Shown here one piece after another: positions 2,858-26,982 of a stretch of DNA of 29,448 bases (positions are counted from its first letter, which is position 1; each line of letters opens with the position of its first letter). The translations under genes and the position numbers were made by a program. Under the pieces are notes generated by a model that ran no database searches, had not been told where the DNA came from, and was given only the letters and a program-made list of their open reading frames with translations. The DNA comes from an uncultured bacterium (GTDB lineage Bacteria > Patescibacteriota > Minisyncoccia > Phycocordibacterales > CAJXDB01), in the NCBI GenBank assembly GCA_913052285.1, contig CAJXDB010000001.1:1-29448 (forward strand), read 5' to 3'.

Positions 2858-5080
2858 CTTTGCGCCTCTTCTTTTCTTTTCCTCGGATAAAATTTCAAGG
2901 GCGCGTTTGAGATTTATGGTGTATACATCGTCAGTTTTAAGAGATCTAAAATCTCCATCATGCATCACATACGGGCCAAATCTACCAACGCTGGCGATGA
3001 TTGGGTTTTCTGTGTCGGGGTGTACTCCAAGTTCTCTTGGTAGACTTAAGTACTTTAGAGCATCTTCGAGTGTTACTTCTTCCGGACTCTTGTCTTTCGG
3101 TACACTTCCGCGTCTAGGTTTCTCCTTCTTTTTTCCTCGCCCTGAGCCTGTAGTTCGACCTTGCTCACCACCCTGAGCCTGTCGAAGGGTCGAAGGGTTT
3201 TCTCCAAGCTGTACATATGGACCGAAGCGACCATCAAGTAGGTATACATTTTCTCCAGTTTCAGGATCTTTTCCAATTGGTTCAGCGTCCTTTATCTCTT
3301 TTCCTTCAATTGTTCTAGCACCGTCGCAGTCTGGAAACTTATTACAGCTCATAAATTTTCCACGTTTGCCAAGTTTAATTACCATAGTACTGTCACATTT
3401 TGGACAGCGAAACTCTTCTGGTGCATCACCAAGGTCAGTAATTTTAATATCGTCAGTTTTGTGATCTATTTCCTTTGAAAATGGAGTGTAGAAATCTTTT
3501 AGAGTTTTTTCATACGTAAGGTTGCCTTCAGCAATTTCGTCAAGTTTATGCTCCATTTCAGCTGTAAACGAGTCACTTATGTAGTTTTCAAAGTTTTTCT
3601 CTAAAAATGAACTTACGACATCACCAGTGTCGGTAGGGAATAGAGTGCGTCCTTCTTTCTCTACATATCCACGATCTGAAAGTGTTCGCATGATGCTTGC
3701 GTATGTTGATGGTCGTCCTATCTCGCGCTTTTCAAGCTCTTTAATAAGCCCTGCTTCTGTGTATCGTCCGAGTGGTTTTGTTTCTTTTCTCTCGCTTTCA
3801 ATATTTAATAGTTTTAGTTCTTCACATTTTTCGACAGCTGGAAGTTCAACATCTTCTCCTCTGGATTCGGTGTCAACACGAAGCCATCCATCAAACAATA
3901 TTCTCGATCCGGTTACAGTAAAGTCTGGCACTTTATCTTCTCCTTTTGTCGGTTCTACTTTTGTAATAATTTTTGTAGCAAGAAGTTTTGCATCGCTCAT
4001 TTGCGATGCAATCGTTCGTTTCCAGATTAGTTCGTATAGCTTTTTCTGTTCCGGTGTATTGCCTGCTGATCGCTTTGAAATATTTGTTGGCCGAATTGCT
4101 TCATGTGCTTCTTGAGCATTTTTGCTTTTTGTTTTAAAAACTCGCGTTTCTACATACTCTTTTCCATATTCCTCAGCGATTAATGATCGTATGATTCCGA
4201 GCGTCGCATTTCCAATGGTTACGCTATCTGTTCTCATATATGTTATATGACCAGATTCATAGAGTTTTTGAGCAATACCCATTGTTCGCGAAGGAGCAAA
4301 GCCTAATCGGGAGCTCGCGGCTTGCTGTAGCGTCGAAGTTATAAAGGGTGCTCTCGGAGATCTCTTAGTGTTTTTCTCTTCAATATCAGAGACACTCCAT
4401 GATCCTGCTTTTCCAACTGAAAGAATTCGCTCTGCTTCATCTTCCTTTTTTGGCTCCTCACTACACGTAACGCCAAATTGTTTTTTCCCTCCTTTTACAT
4501 CAGCGGTGATGACGAAAAATTCTTCTGGTACAAATTCCCTAATTTCTCTTTCTCTCTCCATAATAATTCGAAGAGCGGGGGACTGTACTCGGCCTGCAGA
4601 TAGCCCATATCGTACTTTTTTCCAAATAAGTCCTGACAAATCGTATCCAACAAGTCGGTCTAGCACTCTTCGAGCCTCTTGTGCTTTTCGCAAGTTGTCA
4701 TCAATGGTTCGCGGATGTTTCAGTGCTTCTTGCACTGCTTCTTTTGTAATTTCGTTAAAAACAACTCTCTGTGGCTTTTTTAAATTAGCTAGCTCCTTTA
4801 CGTGCCACGCTATCGCTTCACCTTCTCTGTCGGGGTCAGTAGCCAAGAGCACTTCCTTAGAGCTTTTCGCCAGCTTTTGAATTTCGTCAATAGTTTTCTC
4901 TTTTCCCTTAACCGGTTCGTAATGTGGAGTAAAATTCTTATCAATGTCAATTGCCTTCTTATTACTTTTTGGCAAATCACGAACATGCCCAACCGATGCA
5001 ATAACGGTGTATTTATCGTCCAAATATTTTGAAATTGTTTTCGCCTTTGCTGGCGATTCAACTATAAGAAGTTTTGACAT
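2849..5080 (-). CDS. topA: DNA topoisomerase I (type IA)
   Basis: LIVESPAKAKTI, ATDPDREGEAIAWH, SAGRVQSPAL, catalytic ITYMRTDS, one C4 zinc ribbon, two GRFGPYV C-terminal repeats and a Lys-rich tail. Confidence 0.98.
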   Translation of the reverse strand: MSKLLIVESPAKAKTISKYLDDKYTVIASVGHVRDLPKSNKKAIDIDKNFTPHYEPVKGKEKTIDEIQKLAKSSKEVLLATDPDREGEAIAWHVKELANLKKPQRVVFNEITKEAVQEALKHPRTIDDNLRKAQEARRVLDRLVGYDLSGLIWKKVRYGLSAGRVQSPALRIIMEREREIREFVPEEFFVITADVKGGKKQFGVTCSEEPKKEDEAERILSVGKAGSWSVSDIEEKNTKRSPRAPFITSTLQQAASSRLGFAPSRTMGIAQKLYESGHITYMRTDSVTIGNATLGIIRSLIAEEYGKEYVETRVFKTKSKNAQEAHEAIRPTNISKRSAGNTPEQKKLYELIWKRTIASQMSDAKLLATKIITKVEPTKGEDKVPDFTVTGSRILFDGWLRVDTESRGEDVELPAVEKCEELKLLNIESERKETKPLGRYTEAGLIKELEKREIGRPSTYASIMRTLSDRGYVEKEGRTLFPTDTGDVVSSFLEKNFENYISDSFTAEMEHKLDEIAEGNLTYEKTLKDFYTPFSKEIDHKTDDIKITDLGDAPEEFRCPKCDSTMVIKLGKRGKFMSCNKFPDCDGARTIEGKEIKDAEPIGKDPETGENVYLLDGRFGPYVQLGENPSTLRQAQGGEQGRTTGSGRGKKKEKPRRGSVPKDKSPEEVTLEDALKYLSLPRELGVHPDTENPIIASVGRFGPYVMHDGDFRSLKTDDVYTINLKRALEILSEEKKRRGAKKK
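3140..3197 (-). repeat. Palindromic mini-element (CCCTTCGACAGGCTCAGGG type) in frame inside topA
   Basis: Minus strand CCCTTCGA CCCTTCGA CAGGCTCAGGG TGGTGAGCAAGGTCGAACTA CAGGCTCAGGG; internal duplications; encodes PSTLRQAQGGEQGRTTGSG. Confidence 0.75.
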
Positions 5081-5186
5081 CCCAGTAGAAATTAATAAAT
5101 AACGTAAATAGTTTATTCGTGTCCGTTTTAATTTCTAATGGGACACATAGTCTACTGTTCTACTTTAAAAGAATTTCTTTGTCAAA

Positions 5187-6041
5187 TCATTGTACATGCA
5201 ATTCTCCCATACGTTCAGTAATAAGTCCTTTGATTTCCATAGATGAAAGCAAAACATTCGCGTCTTGTACAGGTATATTCAACTTTTGAATTAGCTCGTC
5301 ACGCGGCATAGGAATCTCAAGAAGTTTAATTACTTTCTGTTCGGTGTCTGATAAGGTATTGTCTTGGACATTTTTCTCACTTTGCTCAATACCGAGCACT
5401 TCAAACAGTTCCTTGCTTGAGCTTACAGGAACGGCACCTAGTCGTATTAGCATGTGTGGGCCGTGTGAGTTTTTTGAAAATATAGATCCTGGAACTGTAC
5501 AGACATCTCTATTATATTCAAGTGCAAGTCTCGATGTGATAAGTGTTCCTGATTTTTCAATAGCTTCAATTACAAGTACTACATGGGAAAGGCCTGCCAT
5601 AATGCGGTTTCTTTGTGGAAAACTGTATGGTGTTGCCTGAAAGTCCTCCTGAAACTCGGACAAGAGAGCACCACCTGAATCTACAATTTGTTTTGCAAGT
5701 CCGCGATGTATAGCTGGATAAAGCACTTTTTCACCAAGTCCTGACCCAGGTACTGCAATTGTCTGAATGTTTGCCGCAAGGGCAGCTCTGTGTGCTATTG
5801 AGTCAATGCCAAGCGCAAGTCCGGAGACAATGGCTACATCATATCCTCTAAGATCAGCAATCAACTTTTCGCAAACCTCGCGTCCGTATGGTGTGTATTT
5901 TCTTGACCCGACTACACATAAGAGCTTTGTATCTTTTGAGGGGAGTGTTCCCATAACGAAAAGTTCTTTTGGTTTGTCTGGTATTTCGTGAAGTAATTCC
6001 GGAAAGTCGGATTGCGATAGTTGTCGTATGGCATGCTCCAT
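5187..6041 (-). CDS. dprA: DNA-processing protein DprA/Smf
   Basis: VVGSRK-x-TPYG, IVSGLALGID-x-x-AH, FPQRNRIMAGLS, SGTLIT, C-terminal winged helix; conserved dprA-topA gene order. Confidence 0.96.
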   Translation of the reverse strand: MEHAIRQLSQSDFPELLHEIPDKPKELFVMGTLPSKDTKLLCVVGSRKYTPYGREVCEKLIADLRGYDVAIVSGLALGIDSIAHRAALAANIQTIAVPGSGLGEKVLYPAIHRGLAKQIVDSGGALLSEFQEDFQATPYSFPQRNRIMAGLSHVVLVIEAIEKSGTLITSRLALEYNRDVCTVPGSIFSKNSHGPHMLIRLGAVPVSSSKELFEVLGIEQSEKNVQDNTLSDTEQKVIKLLEIPMPRDELIQKLNIPVQDANVLLSSMEIKGLITERMGELHVQ

Positions 6042-24944: not shown

Positions 24945-24966
24945 TCATTTGCTATACTTAACTGTA

Positions 24967-25941
24967 ATGACACGGACAAAAGTCGGAGTCCTTAGAGGCG
25001 GACCAAATACGGAATTTGAAGTATCTCTTGAAACCGGAAAGAGTGTACTTGAGAACATGCCTTCAGATAGGTACGAGGGACTCGATATTTTTATAGATAG
25101 GGAAGGAGAATGGCATGTGCGTGGTAAACCCGTAAAGCCAGTTGATGCATTACGCGGAGTAGATGTTGTGTTTAATGCCATGCATGGTCCATATGGAGAG
25201 GATGGAATCGTGCAGAAACTTCTGGACAAATTCAATATTCCATATAATGGATCAGGCGCTCTTGCTTCTGCTGTGAGTATGAACAAGCTTCTTGCTAAAC
25301 AGCGCGCGGAGGCAATTGGAATGCAGACACCACAGTATGTCATTCTTGAAGTTAGTCCAAATCTTGAGCAGACACTTTCAGATATTTTTAGAACATTTCC
25401 ACAGCCGACAGTAGTAAAGCCTATTTCTTGTGGCTCTTCAGTTGGAGTTACCATTGCGCATGGATATAAGAATTTGATTCAGGGTGTGGAGCGTGCGTTT
25501 GAGCATTGCCCAAAGGTTATAGTTGAGGAATATATACCGGGGAGAGAGGCAACCGTGGGTGTCATTGAAGACTTTCGAGATCAGGAAATATATGCGCTTC
25601 CACCAATTGAAATTATTCCTCCAACAAATAAAGATTTTTTTGATTATGATGCTAAGTACGGAGGTGAATCGCAGGAAATTTGTCCGGGTAATTTTGATAA
25701 AGAAGTAACAGGTCAGCTTGAAAATCTTGCTCGGGAAATTCATAAACACCTTGATCTTAGGCATTACTCACGGTCGGATTTCAGAATTTCCCCGAAAGGC
25801 ATTTATTTCCTTGAAGTGAATACACTTCCGGGATTGACGGAAGGATCACTTTTGCCAAAAGCTGTTTCAGCGGTCGGATCAAGTCAGTCTGAATTTATAG
25901 ACCACGTCATCTCTCTTGCCCTCACACCAACCAGAACGTAG
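24967..25941 (+). CDS. ddl: D-alanine--D-alanine ligase
   Basis: GG-x-x-x-E-x-EVSL-x-TG, MHGPYGEDG, GSS-x-GV, VEEYIPGRE, YDAKY, SRSDF, LEVNTLPGLT-x-x-SLLP. Confidence 0.96.
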   Translation: MTRTKVGVLRGGPNTEFEVSLETGKSVLENMPSDRYEGLDIFIDREGEWHVRGKPVKPVDALRGVDVVFNAMHGPYGEDGIVQKLLDKFNIPYNGSGALASAVSMNKLLAKQRAEAIGMQTPQYVILEVSPNLEQTLSDIFRTFPQPTVVKPISCGSSVGVTIAHGYKNLIQGVERAFEHCPKVIVEEYIPGREATVGVIEDFRDQEIYALPPIEIIPPTNKDFFDYDAKYGGESQEICPGNFDKEVTGQLENLAREIHKHLDLRHYSRSDFRISPKGIYFLEVNTLPGLTEGSLLPKAVSAVGSSQSEFIDHVISLALTPTRT

Positions 25942-25988
25942 TTTTTTGTCGCAATAGTGACTGAGAGACTTTATGTTGTTGCTACTGA

Positions 25989-25997
25989 TGGTATAAT
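25989..25997 (+). promoter_or_regulatory. Extended -10 promoter of the endonuclease gene (leaderless)
   Basis: TGGTATAAT, 6 nt before ATG 26004. Confidence 0.6.
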
Positions 25998-26003
25998 AAA
26001 TTC

Positions 26004-26411
26004 ATGCTGAAGAAACATCAGGGGACTGTTGGAGTGTTGCGTGTAGCGCACGCTTATCAGTTGTTAGAGTATAATGTCCTACTTCCATTTGGTGATTCAC
26101 AAAAATATGATCTTGTTATTGAAAAAGGTGGTGAATTGAAAAGGGTTCAGGTGAAAACGGCGACTGAGAAAAATGGAGTAGTGTATGCGGATACAAGGGT
26201 TATAGGTCACAACCTAAAGGGTGTTAATATTTATCACCCGACGAAAGAAGATTTTGACATTCTTGCTGTTGTTGAAATGGAAACTCAAAATGTGTATGCT
26301 ATACCCTTTGATGGGAATAGAAAACAATTTCATTTCCGAACAAAAAAGACCAAGAATAACCAGCAAAAAAATGTTAGGCTAGCAAGTGAATACCTATTAT
26401 TGGGCCCGTAG
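26004..26411 (+). CDS. Free-standing PD-(D/E)XK endonuclease, group I intron-associated family (PDDEXK_5, I-Ssp6803I-like)
   Basis: V-x-x-PFGD-x-x-x-YDLV...RVQVKTA, DFD-x-x-AV, Y-x-IP, C-terminal KNNQ-x-K-x-V-x-x-A-x-EY; stop codon lies inside tRNA-Ala. Confidence 0.8.
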   Translation: MLKKHQGTVGVLRVAHAYQLLEYNVLLPFGDSQKYDLVIEKGGELKRVQVKTATEKNGVVYADTRVIGHNLKGVNIYHPTKEDFDILAVVEMETQNVYAIPFDGNRKQFHFRTKKTKNNQQKNVRLASEYLLLGP

Positions 26412-26475
26412 CTCAGTTGGCTAGAGCACCGGTTTTGCACTCCGGAGGTCGCAGGTTCGATTCCTGTCGGGTCCA
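26402..26475 (+). tRNA. tRNA-Ala(TGC)
   Basis: Acceptor GGGCCCG/CGGGTCC with the G3:U70 alanine determinant, D stem GCTC/GAGC, anticodon TGC at 26436-26438, T loop TTCGATT; no intron; CCA not encoded. Confidence 0.95.
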
Positions 26476-26619
26476 CAACAAAAGAAAGAACTCGCACAAA
26501 GCGAGTTCTTTCTTTTGAGCACAGGAGTCACATATAGCGGGCATGACTCCTCCTGATTGAAGCACGCCATCTTTTTCCTTATTGCATTCGGTGCAAGTGA
26601 AAGTTATATGTACAGCCAT
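26413..26619 (-). CDS. Possible small zinc-ribbon protein whose frame runs antisense through tRNA-Ala
   Basis: AAGGTGA SD-like site; CTEC-x17-CDSC; the C-terminal part is the reverse translation of the terminator and the tRNA. Confidence 0.4.
   Translation of the reverse strand: MAVHITFTCTECNKEKDGVLQSGGVMPAICDSCAQKKELALCEFFLLLWTRQESNLRPPECKTGALAN
26479..26517. terminator. Terminator downstream of tRNA-Ala
   Basis: 17-bp perfect stem CAAAAGAAAGAACTCGC/GCGAGTTCTTTCTTTTG. Confidence 0.75.
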
Positions 26620-26944: not shown

Positions 26945-26982
26945 AACAAACACCTCATATGGTTCCATATGAGGTGTTTGTT
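26945..26982. terminator. Bidirectional terminator-like hairpin
   Basis: 18-bp perfect stem AACAAACACCTCATATGG/CCATATGAGGTGTTTGTT between convergent small genes. Confidence 0.7.

Follow-up and report, generated by a model that had tools for sequence, protein, structure and literature searches.

The window, by which we mean the whole 29,448-nucleotide stretch of DNA analysed (positions 1 to 29,448 of contig CAJXDB010000001.1, assembly GCA_913052285.1), comes from an uncultured bacterium of the Patescibacteriota, and the element considered here is a short gene that lies immediately upstream of a tRNA-Ala(UGC) gene and borrows its stop codon from it. The gene encodes an endonuclease-like protein related to the tRNA-intron endonuclease I-Ssp6803I and is flanked on the left by ddl and on the right by the tRNA, a terminator and a DUF5679 gene. 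The host assembly (G000) comprises 470 kb in 54 contigs with 27 tRNA genes and is 84% complete; contigs identical to the window locus are of Tara Oceans origin, and the host is marine. Loci and genomes compared with it are designated by L and G numbers, and contigs of G000 by C numbers. The features of the locus, all on the forward strand, are as follows.

24949-25941 (+): ddl, encoding D-alanine--D-alanine ligase (Pfam Dala_Dala_lig_C, 139 bits; Dala_Dala_lig_N, 81 bits), the left flank of the insertion.
25916-25944 (+): TTGCCC-N17-TAGTTT, probably what is left of the ancestral tRNA-Ala promoter; it spans the ddl stop codon and was recognised by eye.
25989-25997 (+): the cassette's own predicted promoter, an extended -10 element TGgTATAAT situated 6 nt before the ATG, without a Shine-Dalgarno-like (SD-like) motif.
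26004-26411 (+): the PF11645 (I-Ssp6803I-family PD-(D/E)XK) endonuclease-like gene, 135 amino acids, ending TTG GGC CCG TAG.
26272-26300 (+): weak internal promoter-like site TTGAAA-N17-TATGCT within the open reading frame (ORF), with 9 of 12 matches.
26402-26476 (+): tRNA-Ala(UGC) without an encoded CCA (ARAGORN; Rfam tRNA, 68.5 bits at 26402-26475).
26402-26411 (+): 10-nt overlap of ORF and tRNA, in which the codons GGC CCG and the TAG are nt 2-10 of tRNA-Ala.
26479-26517 (+): intrinsic terminator hairpin of 17 bp with an A-run and a U-run on its flanks (-25.9 kcal/mol, z -8.45).

Sequence, fold and core motif all place the window gene in the I-Ssp6803I family. It scores 88.5 bits against the Pfam PF11645 (PDDEXK_5) profile, whose cut-off is 26.1, and covers profile positions 3-136 of 138; NCBIfam holds no model that matches it, and I-Ssp6803I itself (2OST, E 6e-6) is its sole sequence match in the Protein Data Bank (PDB). 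An AlphaFold model of the protein (pLDDT 89.4) contains the restriction-endonuclease-like alpha/beta core of I-Ssp6803I, and when it is used as a Foldseek query the top four matches are chains of 2OST (TM 0.77/0.71, E 8.5e-10), followed by the Holliday junction resolvase Hjc. In an alignment of 23 diverse PF11645 members D36 and Q49 are invariant and K51 is present in the window protein, which thus carries the core motif D...(E/Q)xK; all three residues are invariant in the 12 protein clusters of the Ala clade, the group of homologues to which the window gene belongs, whereas K51 is replaced by R in several of the genes associated with tRNA-Ser. M1, K4 and G10 are also invariant in the Ala clade, so that the ATG at 26004 can be taken as the start. 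Near the amino terminus the segment QGTVGV aligns with KGDIAE of the intron-encoded relatives, and V11 stands in place of the glutamate of helix 1. The GC content of the ORF is 37.2%, compared with 41.5% for the genome.

The stop codon TAG (26409-26411) corresponds to nt 8-10 of the tRNA and the last two sense codons to nt 2-7. The tRNA is contiguous, and no match to the Rfam group I intron model Intron_gpI is found within the window, in a search for which two intron-containing loci, L018 and L019, served as positive controls (72 and 71 bits). The terminator hairpin that follows is strong, none of 200 shuffled sequences folding as well, and no terminator-like site was found between the start of the ORF and the tRNA (26004-26401). 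This is the only tRNA-Ala detected in the 84%-complete assembly. The original prediction, made from the letters of the window without database searches, had named the nuclease family and proposed a search with PDDEXK_5, had placed the stop codon within tRNA-Ala, the clearest promoter before the ORF and a terminator after the tRNA, and had noted both the absence of an intron and the loss of the N-terminal acidic residue; on each of these points it is upheld, and TGgTATAAT is the only strong promoter candidate seen. A cassette that had split the tRNA gene would be expected to leave an orphan 5' piece of tRNA-Ala upstream, and this is not borne out at the window locus, where no extra tRNA-Ala fragment is present.

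That the gene is an insertion is evident from related genomes. A uvrC-ddl-tRNA-Ala(UGC) arrangement without the ORF, and with a spacer of 25-76 nt, is present in many genomes of the same order (among them G014, G036, G046, G025, G049 and G035; loci L035, L042, L046, L047, L036 and L057), these empty sites having been located with the tRNA as search probe. The similarity is closest in G014, in which the DUF5679 gene is also found downstream and the tRNA-Ala is 97% identical to that of the window. At the empty sites a good promoter of the form TTGCnA-N16-TA(A/G)AAT (for example TTGCTA-N16-TAAAAT) straddles the ddl stop codon and lies approximately 11-25 nt before the first base of the tRNA. The remnant at 25916-25944 in the window occupies the same position relative to conserved Leu-Ala codons and to the ddl stop; it scores below the threshold of the promoter scan and is recognised by comparison with the ORF-less relatives. 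In L017, another locus carrying the ORF, an intact TATAAT immediately follows the ddl stop. Because the old promoter is upstream of the cassette, the cassette sits between that promoter and the tRNA, which is to say in the tRNA leader. The comparison with ORF-less relatives proposed in the original prediction places the tRNA promoter exactly at the present site of the cassette.

The same layout recurs among the homologues. A protein search returned 13 clusters at 61-84% identity besides the window's own cluster (P0001), and in all nine distinct Ala-clade loci that are readable a tRNA-Ala(UGC) gene is directly downstream. Eight of the nine share the identical 10-nt overlap (L005-L010, L012-L017, L073 and L074, with L011 excepted, which has its own TAA and a 9-nt gap to the tRNA), and it is retained in spite of 3-nt insertions and deletions directly before it. 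The protein sequences tell the same story, since 11 of the 12 clusters have GP or GL as their last residues, encoded by GGCCCG or GGCCTG at nt 2-7 of the tRNA. The upstream context is ddl in the window, L017 and L074, ddl together with a pterin-4a gene in L008, a divergent metal-resistance cluster in L007, and tRNA-Ile in L010 and L012. The original prediction had staked its case on a recurring tRNA overlap among homologues, and this is what is seen. A chance juxtaposition produced by genome compaction, with no link between gene and tRNA, would suit a small and tightly packed genome and the fact that a TAG at nt 8-10 is commonplace in tRNAs. However, every Ala-clade homologue is at tRNA-Ala(UGC) although their upstream contexts are of at least four kinds, roughly two thirds of the other PF11645 loci in Patescibacteria and several phage loci also abut a tRNA, and by chance no more than 27 of the several hundred genes present here could adjoin one. 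The survey of homologues contradicts a chance overlap, and we consider this explanation to be hardly credible.

The distribution of the gene is patchy. Within the order, 4 of 61 genomes were found to contain PF11645, as were 16 of 401 within the phylum and 13 of 162 within a second class; the Ala type is carried by just one of the 61. An alignment search of metagenome contigs with the Ala clade yielded two new Ala-clade loci, and the same search of viral contigs gave only distant relatives without tRNAs nearby. In a maximum-likelihood tree of Ddl the four carriers occupy three places, each sister to a non-carrier (supports 88/93, 93/85 and 100/99), and monophyly of the carriers is rejected by the approximately unbiased (AU) test (p = 0.0009). 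Between carrier hosts the nuclease is 66-71% identical, compared with 44-48% for Ddl and 49% for UvrC. The ORF is under purifying selection, with pN of 0.18-0.25 and pS of 0.7-0.89 (the proportions of differing nonsynonymous and synonymous sites); these are given in place of dN/dS, synonymous sites being saturated between the copies, from which it also follows that no sampled transfer is recent. One lineage has decayed: in L012 (2524-2931; also L013-L016 and L075) a CAA-to-TAA change introduces a nonsense codon at position 19 while the remainder of the frame and the 10-nt overlap are retained, and this version is represented by 13 contigs from several lake samples. As judged from sequence comparisons, the patchiness, the decay and the insertion are the marks of what appears to be a selfish, occasionally decaying and horizontally spreading gene.

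An alternative that bears on the same observations is that the protein is domesticated and non-mobile, for example a DNA-binding autoregulator of the tRNA transcription unit that acts on a promoter-spacer motif, and that it has been passed on by vertical descent with numerous losses. It would account for the missing helix-1 glutamate throughout the Ala clade and for the strong purifying selection with its saturated synonymous sites, and conserved clade-specific motifs are indeed present between the -35 and -10 positions; I-Ssp6803I binds pseudo-palindromic DNA (PMC3384342). Against this, the Ala type is present in a single one of the order's 61 genomes, the three placements on the Ddl tree are each beside an empty site so that many precise losses would be needed, one copy is a pseudogene with its nonsense codon at position 19, and the D36, Q49 and K51 core is retained. 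The presence of HNH and GIY-YIG genes at other tRNAs of the same genome, described below, is also more in keeping with a selfish niche than with a function for the host, and we judge domestication to be improbable.

We note that the spacer motifs are partly palindromic. That of the Ala type is ACAACAGG and that of the Ser type GTTGCCCATACCG, and they are located at 25975-25991 in the window, at 3960-3990 in L011, where the motif is a perfect 11-bp inverted repeat, and about 20-35 nt before the ATG in L084-L088. They could be operators for autoregulation or flanks that are co-converted with the gene.

Beyond the Ala clade, a co-oriented tRNA that begins anywhere from 38 nt inside the end of the ORF to 15 nt past its stop codon is seen in about 15 of 22 non-intron PF11645 loci of Patescibacteria. 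The tRNAs that are abutted or overlapped, all co-oriented with the PF11645 gene, are the following.

tRNA-Tyr: L002, L003, L021 and L022.
tRNA-Thr(UGU): L020.
tRNA-Ser(UGA): L023, L024 and L084-L087.
tRNA-Arg: L081, L082 and L088.

Three of the 22 loci (L025-L027) have instead a divergent tRNA-Ser(UGA) 48-111 nt before the ATG, and L089 is the only one without a nearby tRNA. Intron-type PF11645 genes are also present in Patescibacteria, at L018, L019 and L079, where the ORF comes right after the 5' half of tRNA-fMet; a group I intron core follows it in L018 (1440-2120) and L019 (1440-2100), with the Rfam scores given above, while the arrangement in L079 (1455-2230) was recognised by eye only, and ARAGORN calls none of these three split tRNA-fMet genes. 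Phages show a similar organization. According to the deposited annotations a gene of this kind overlaps tRNA-Ser(GCU) by 22 nt in Streptomyces phage Navo (gene 202) and tRNA-Val by 21 nt in Synechococcus phage Sf-FR1, and ends 1 nt before tRNA-Tyr in Acinetobacter phage CP14, and a 735-kb uncultured phage has a PF11645 gene within a tRNA array. The four phage proteins scanned (Navo, Sf-FR1, CP14 and EFP01) score 61-127 bits against PF11645. In the literature that we searched, no account of PF11645 genes situated in tRNA leaders was encountered.

In L083 (1876-1950), 3 nt past the stop codon of a Tyr-type gene, a sequence resembling the 5' half of tRNA-Tyr is followed by extra sequence after the anticodon region; it receives no ARAGORN call and may be an intron-containing tRNA-Tyr. 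The tRNA of L082 (1893-1968) is assigned the anticodon CUA ('Pyl') by ARAGORN, and the anticodon arm of its L081 homologue, called Arg(UCU), is nearly identical; the 'Pyl' call is probably a one-base mis-registration of the loop and not a suppressor tRNA.

Within the host genome itself, a co-oriented open frame of at least 80 codons ends at the 5' end of only 6 of the 27 tRNAs, in line with an arrangement that is more than chance. Besides the window gene, these tRNA-side ORFs in G000 are L103-L107, listed here by contig and strand.

C9:6864-7346 (-)
C42:1899-2189 (+)
C37:749-1369 (-)
C25:1178-1750 (+)
C46:2595-2990 (+)

One of them, an HNH gene (23.7 bits), is separated by 3 nt from tRNA-Ser(UGA) downstream, the gap between a GIY-YIG gene (62 bits) and the tRNA-Tyr that follows is 1 nt, and a gene for a 206-amino acid helix-turn-helix (HTH) protein of a Patescibacteria and phage family stops 2 nt short of tRNA-Arg(CCU). 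The other two ORFs have no family assignment and extend 23 nt into tRNA-Ile(GAU) and 10 nt into tRNA-Thr(UGU). A single 470-kb genome has a PD-(D/E)XK gene at tRNA-Ala, an HNH gene at tRNA-Ser and a GIY-YIG gene at tRNA-Tyr. That relatives of the window gene are placed in the same way at other tRNA genes of ultra-small bacteria and phages suggests that selfish nuclease genes regularly settle in tRNA leaders.

The promoter arrangement is likewise shared. In 20 of 28 PF11645 tRNA-side loci a -10 box, scored as 5 or more matches out of 6 and hence a consensus match only, is situated 5-8 nt before the ATG; the corresponding figures for this genome are 16% among long ORFs and 2.5% among ATG triplets overall. 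The box is also found at loci with a divergent tRNA. An SD-like motif is not present in the tRNA-side loci that have the box, and is seen in 7% of the long ORFs of the genome. The spacing of 6 nt between the -10 box and the ATG in the window implies a leaderless mRNA, which is probably how the cassette is expressed, and leaderless mRNAs seem to be normal in this genome. As no terminator was found before the tRNA, read-through into it is the default expectation, and the ORF is probably co-transcribed with tRNA-Ala. A conserved internal promoter was sought in the 3'-terminal 130 nt of the ORF, and only codon-constrained look-alikes came to light (TTGAAA...TATGCT from VVEM...VYA, and GATTAT from D-Y). 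Sites such as that at 26272-26300 are no commoner here than in shuffled sequences, and its conservation is attributable to protein constraint, coinciding as it does with the conserved VVEM...VYA codons. The genome encodes RnpA (48.5 bits), SmpB (163 bits) and transfer-messenger RNA (tmRNA; 106.8 bits). For the RNase P RNA there is one weak candidate (L064, G000:C19:4193-4438), with 26.9 bits against a gathering threshold of 100 and 246 nt against a model of 367 positions, and it may be a strongly reduced RNase P RNA.

The reading we favour, and regard as probable, is that the gene is part of a free-standing homing-type endonuclease cassette of the I-Ssp6803I family lodged in the 5' leader of tRNA-Ala(UGC). 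The cassette would consist of about 455 nt, with its own promoter and the 135-codon ORF, placed between the old promoter at the end of ddl and the first base of the tRNA; the ORF would fill the leader, with its last two codons and stop borrowed from tRNA nt 2-10. Transcription would continue across both ORF and tRNA as far as the terminator hairpin (26479-26517), and RNase P would then free the tRNA from the joint transcript, making the insertion harmless to the host much as self-splicing does for the intron-encoded relatives. The role of its protein is presumably to recognise tRNA-Ala loci that lack the ORF and to bring about the copying of the cassette into such loci.

How the overlap itself should be understood is a separate matter. 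The original prediction had proposed that it is adaptive, in that cleavage by RNase P at the first base of the tRNA removes the stop codon, ribosomes stall on the resulting non-stop mRNA, and tmRNA tagging limits the nuclease, while the element secures its retention by supplying the promoter of an essential tRNA. The persistence of the overlap in nearly all Ala-clade loci and clusters next to a length-variable segment can be cited in its favour, as can the composition of the mRNA, which after a cut at 26401/26402 would end ...UUA UU without an in-frame stop. The genome also has tmRNA, SmpB and RnpA, and the Escherichia coli secG mRNA decays rapidly once RNase P separates secG from leuU (PMC2241853). 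In the sister clades, however, a stop codon 0-15 nt before the tRNA is about as frequent as one inside it, and L011 in the Ala clade itself has its own TAA. Among the related tRNA-side genes eight stop before the tRNA (L003, L011, L020, L022, L084, L085, L087 and L088), two at its first base, and four inside it (L021, L023, L024 and L086) in addition to the Ala clade, and the intra-tRNA stops fall at varying positions that include the D-arm and the anticodon loop. With so many relatives that stop before the tRNA, removal of the stop codon is not a general feature. Moreover, two of the three frames reach a stop within the first 23 nt of the window tRNA (TAG at nt 8-10 or nt 21-23), so that running into one is to be expected, and an overlap once formed would be frozen because the sequence of the tRNA is constrained. 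Retention through supply of the promoter is weakened by the remnant of the old promoter at 25916-25944 and by the intact one in L017. Removal of the stop codon by RNase P is thus physically plausible from the sequence layout and weak as a selected device; we consider an adaptive overlap of this kind unlikely. The overlap looks like a by-product of tight packing, in which the ORF fills the leader completely. The original interpretation is partly supported: the family, the recurrence and the promoter before the ORF stand, the selected removal of the stop codon is not supported, and retention through the promoter is weakened. The observation is confirmed and extends to a family-wide pattern, for which the most fitting description is that of a homing-type endonuclease, free-standing, with the tRNA leader for a niche.

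Several points weigh against the homing reading. Its main weakness is the enzyme itself, in which the position of the helix-1 glutamate is occupied by V, M, Q or L throughout the Ala clade and is never acidic; the residue is absent also from most Ser- and Tyr-type genes. The role of this glutamate is deduced from the alignment and from general knowledge of Hjc-like nucleases, and catalysis in the window enzyme may be altered or weak, or the protein may be a nickase or bind DNA only. Apart from the one in this genome, no Ala-clade copy was found in an alignment search of 185,579 reference genomes. Long vertical descent with repeated loss is a possible alternative to transfer, and the internal site at 26272-26300 is a possible alternative start that would give the tRNA a transcript of its own. 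Nor do the ORF-adjacent tRNA-Ala genes show an immunity polymorphism, for at none of their positions do carriers differ consistently from non-carriers; a target lying within the tRNA would thus remain in carriers as well, and protection has to be assumed to come from disruption of an upstream half-site. Co-transcription, release by RNase P, DNA cleavage and homing are all steps that we infer. A pseudo-palindromic target centred around GGGCCC (tRNA nt 1-6) was sought by eye in the ORF-less alleles, and their upstream halves do not mirror the tRNA.

Other features of these loci may be mentioned for completeness. A gene matching LAGLIDADG_1 is located upstream of the neighbouring tRNA-Ile in L013. 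In L008 a large serine recombinase gene (4464-5972, minus strand; Resolvase, Recombinase and Zn_ribbon_recom) is directly downstream of tRNA-Ala, which suggests an integrated element that uses the same tRNA. Short copies of tRNA 3' ends are seen at other loci: an inverted 14-nt copy of the tRNA-Ala 3' end is situated 53 nt upstream of the ORF in L007 (3935-3948) and L073 (2935-2948), and a direct 14-nt copy of the tRNA-Ser 3' end comes right after the ORF stop codon in L025 (1253-1266), where the intact tRNA-Ser is divergent and upstream. These orphan copies may be traces of past rearrangement or repair. In the window a second perfect hairpin of 17 bp with a T-run (26945-26982, minus strand) lies just past the DUF5679 gene and is terminator-like in the opposite direction.

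Homing endonucleases are thought to persist in self-splicing introns and inteins or, where free-standing, mostly in phages. Here, a relative of a characterised tRNA-intron endonuclease is found free of any intron in the leader of an essential tRNA of a cellular organism, and the leader habit extends across PF11645, in Patescibacteria and also in cultured Streptomyces, Synechococcus and Acinetobacter phages. If processing of the leader by RNase P makes such insertions harmless, this would explain why tRNA genes attract these genes, why the genes are so tightly packed and borrow stop codons from the tRNA, and how intron-encoded and free-standing forms might interconvert. More tentatively, and with slightly less than even confidence, we propose that the tRNA leader is a third 'safe harbour' beside introns and inteins, with RNase P in the role of self-splicing, that unrelated nuclease superfamilies have colonised it independently in ultra-small bacteria and phages, and that PF11645 is a tRNA-gene-targeting family that moves between the intron and leader niches. 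The homologues also amount to a natural collection of enzymes for which recognition of sequences in tRNA genes is probable. There is a warning for annotation as well, in that ORFs overlapping the 5' ends of tRNAs may be real; some of the phage records give the product as a Holliday junction resolvase or a hypothetical protein.

Comparison with known systems shows which parts of the arrangement are familiar. With I-Ssp6803I (PDB 2OST), which is encoded in a group I intron of the Synechocystis tRNA-fMet gene, the window gene shares PF11645 membership, the fold (TM 0.77), the D...QxK core and a tRNA as host gene. It differs in being outside any intron and upstream of an uninterrupted tRNA, in having its own predicted promoter, in running into the 5' end of the tRNA, and in lacking the helix-1 glutamate. 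In animal mitochondria, tRNA punctuation provides a precedent for the processing step, the excision of abutting tRNAs defining the 3' ends of coding sequences whose stop codons can be incomplete. There, however, polyadenylation completes the stop codon, whereas an A-tail added to the ...UU end of the window mRNA would give a Leu codon and not a stop. A parallel to the predicted co-transcript is secG-leuU of E. coli, an mRNA-tRNA co-transcript from which RNase P releases the tRNA and thereby destabilises the mRNA (PMC2241853). As in secG-leuU, the protein gene of the window is upstream of the tRNA and a terminator follows; secG is by contrast a non-mobile host gene that has its own stop codon before leuU and does not overlap it. 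The best functional analogue would appear to be SegB of phage T4, a free-standing GIY-YIG homing endonuclease encoded in the phage tRNA cluster, the recognition site of which contains a conserved tRNA motif (PMC2330249). Like segB, the window gene is a free-standing nuclease gene among tRNA genes that is present in some genomes and absent from related ones, although SegB belongs to another nuclease superfamily and to a phage genome, has no reported overlap with a tRNA 5' end, and is not encoded in the leader of a single essential tRNA.

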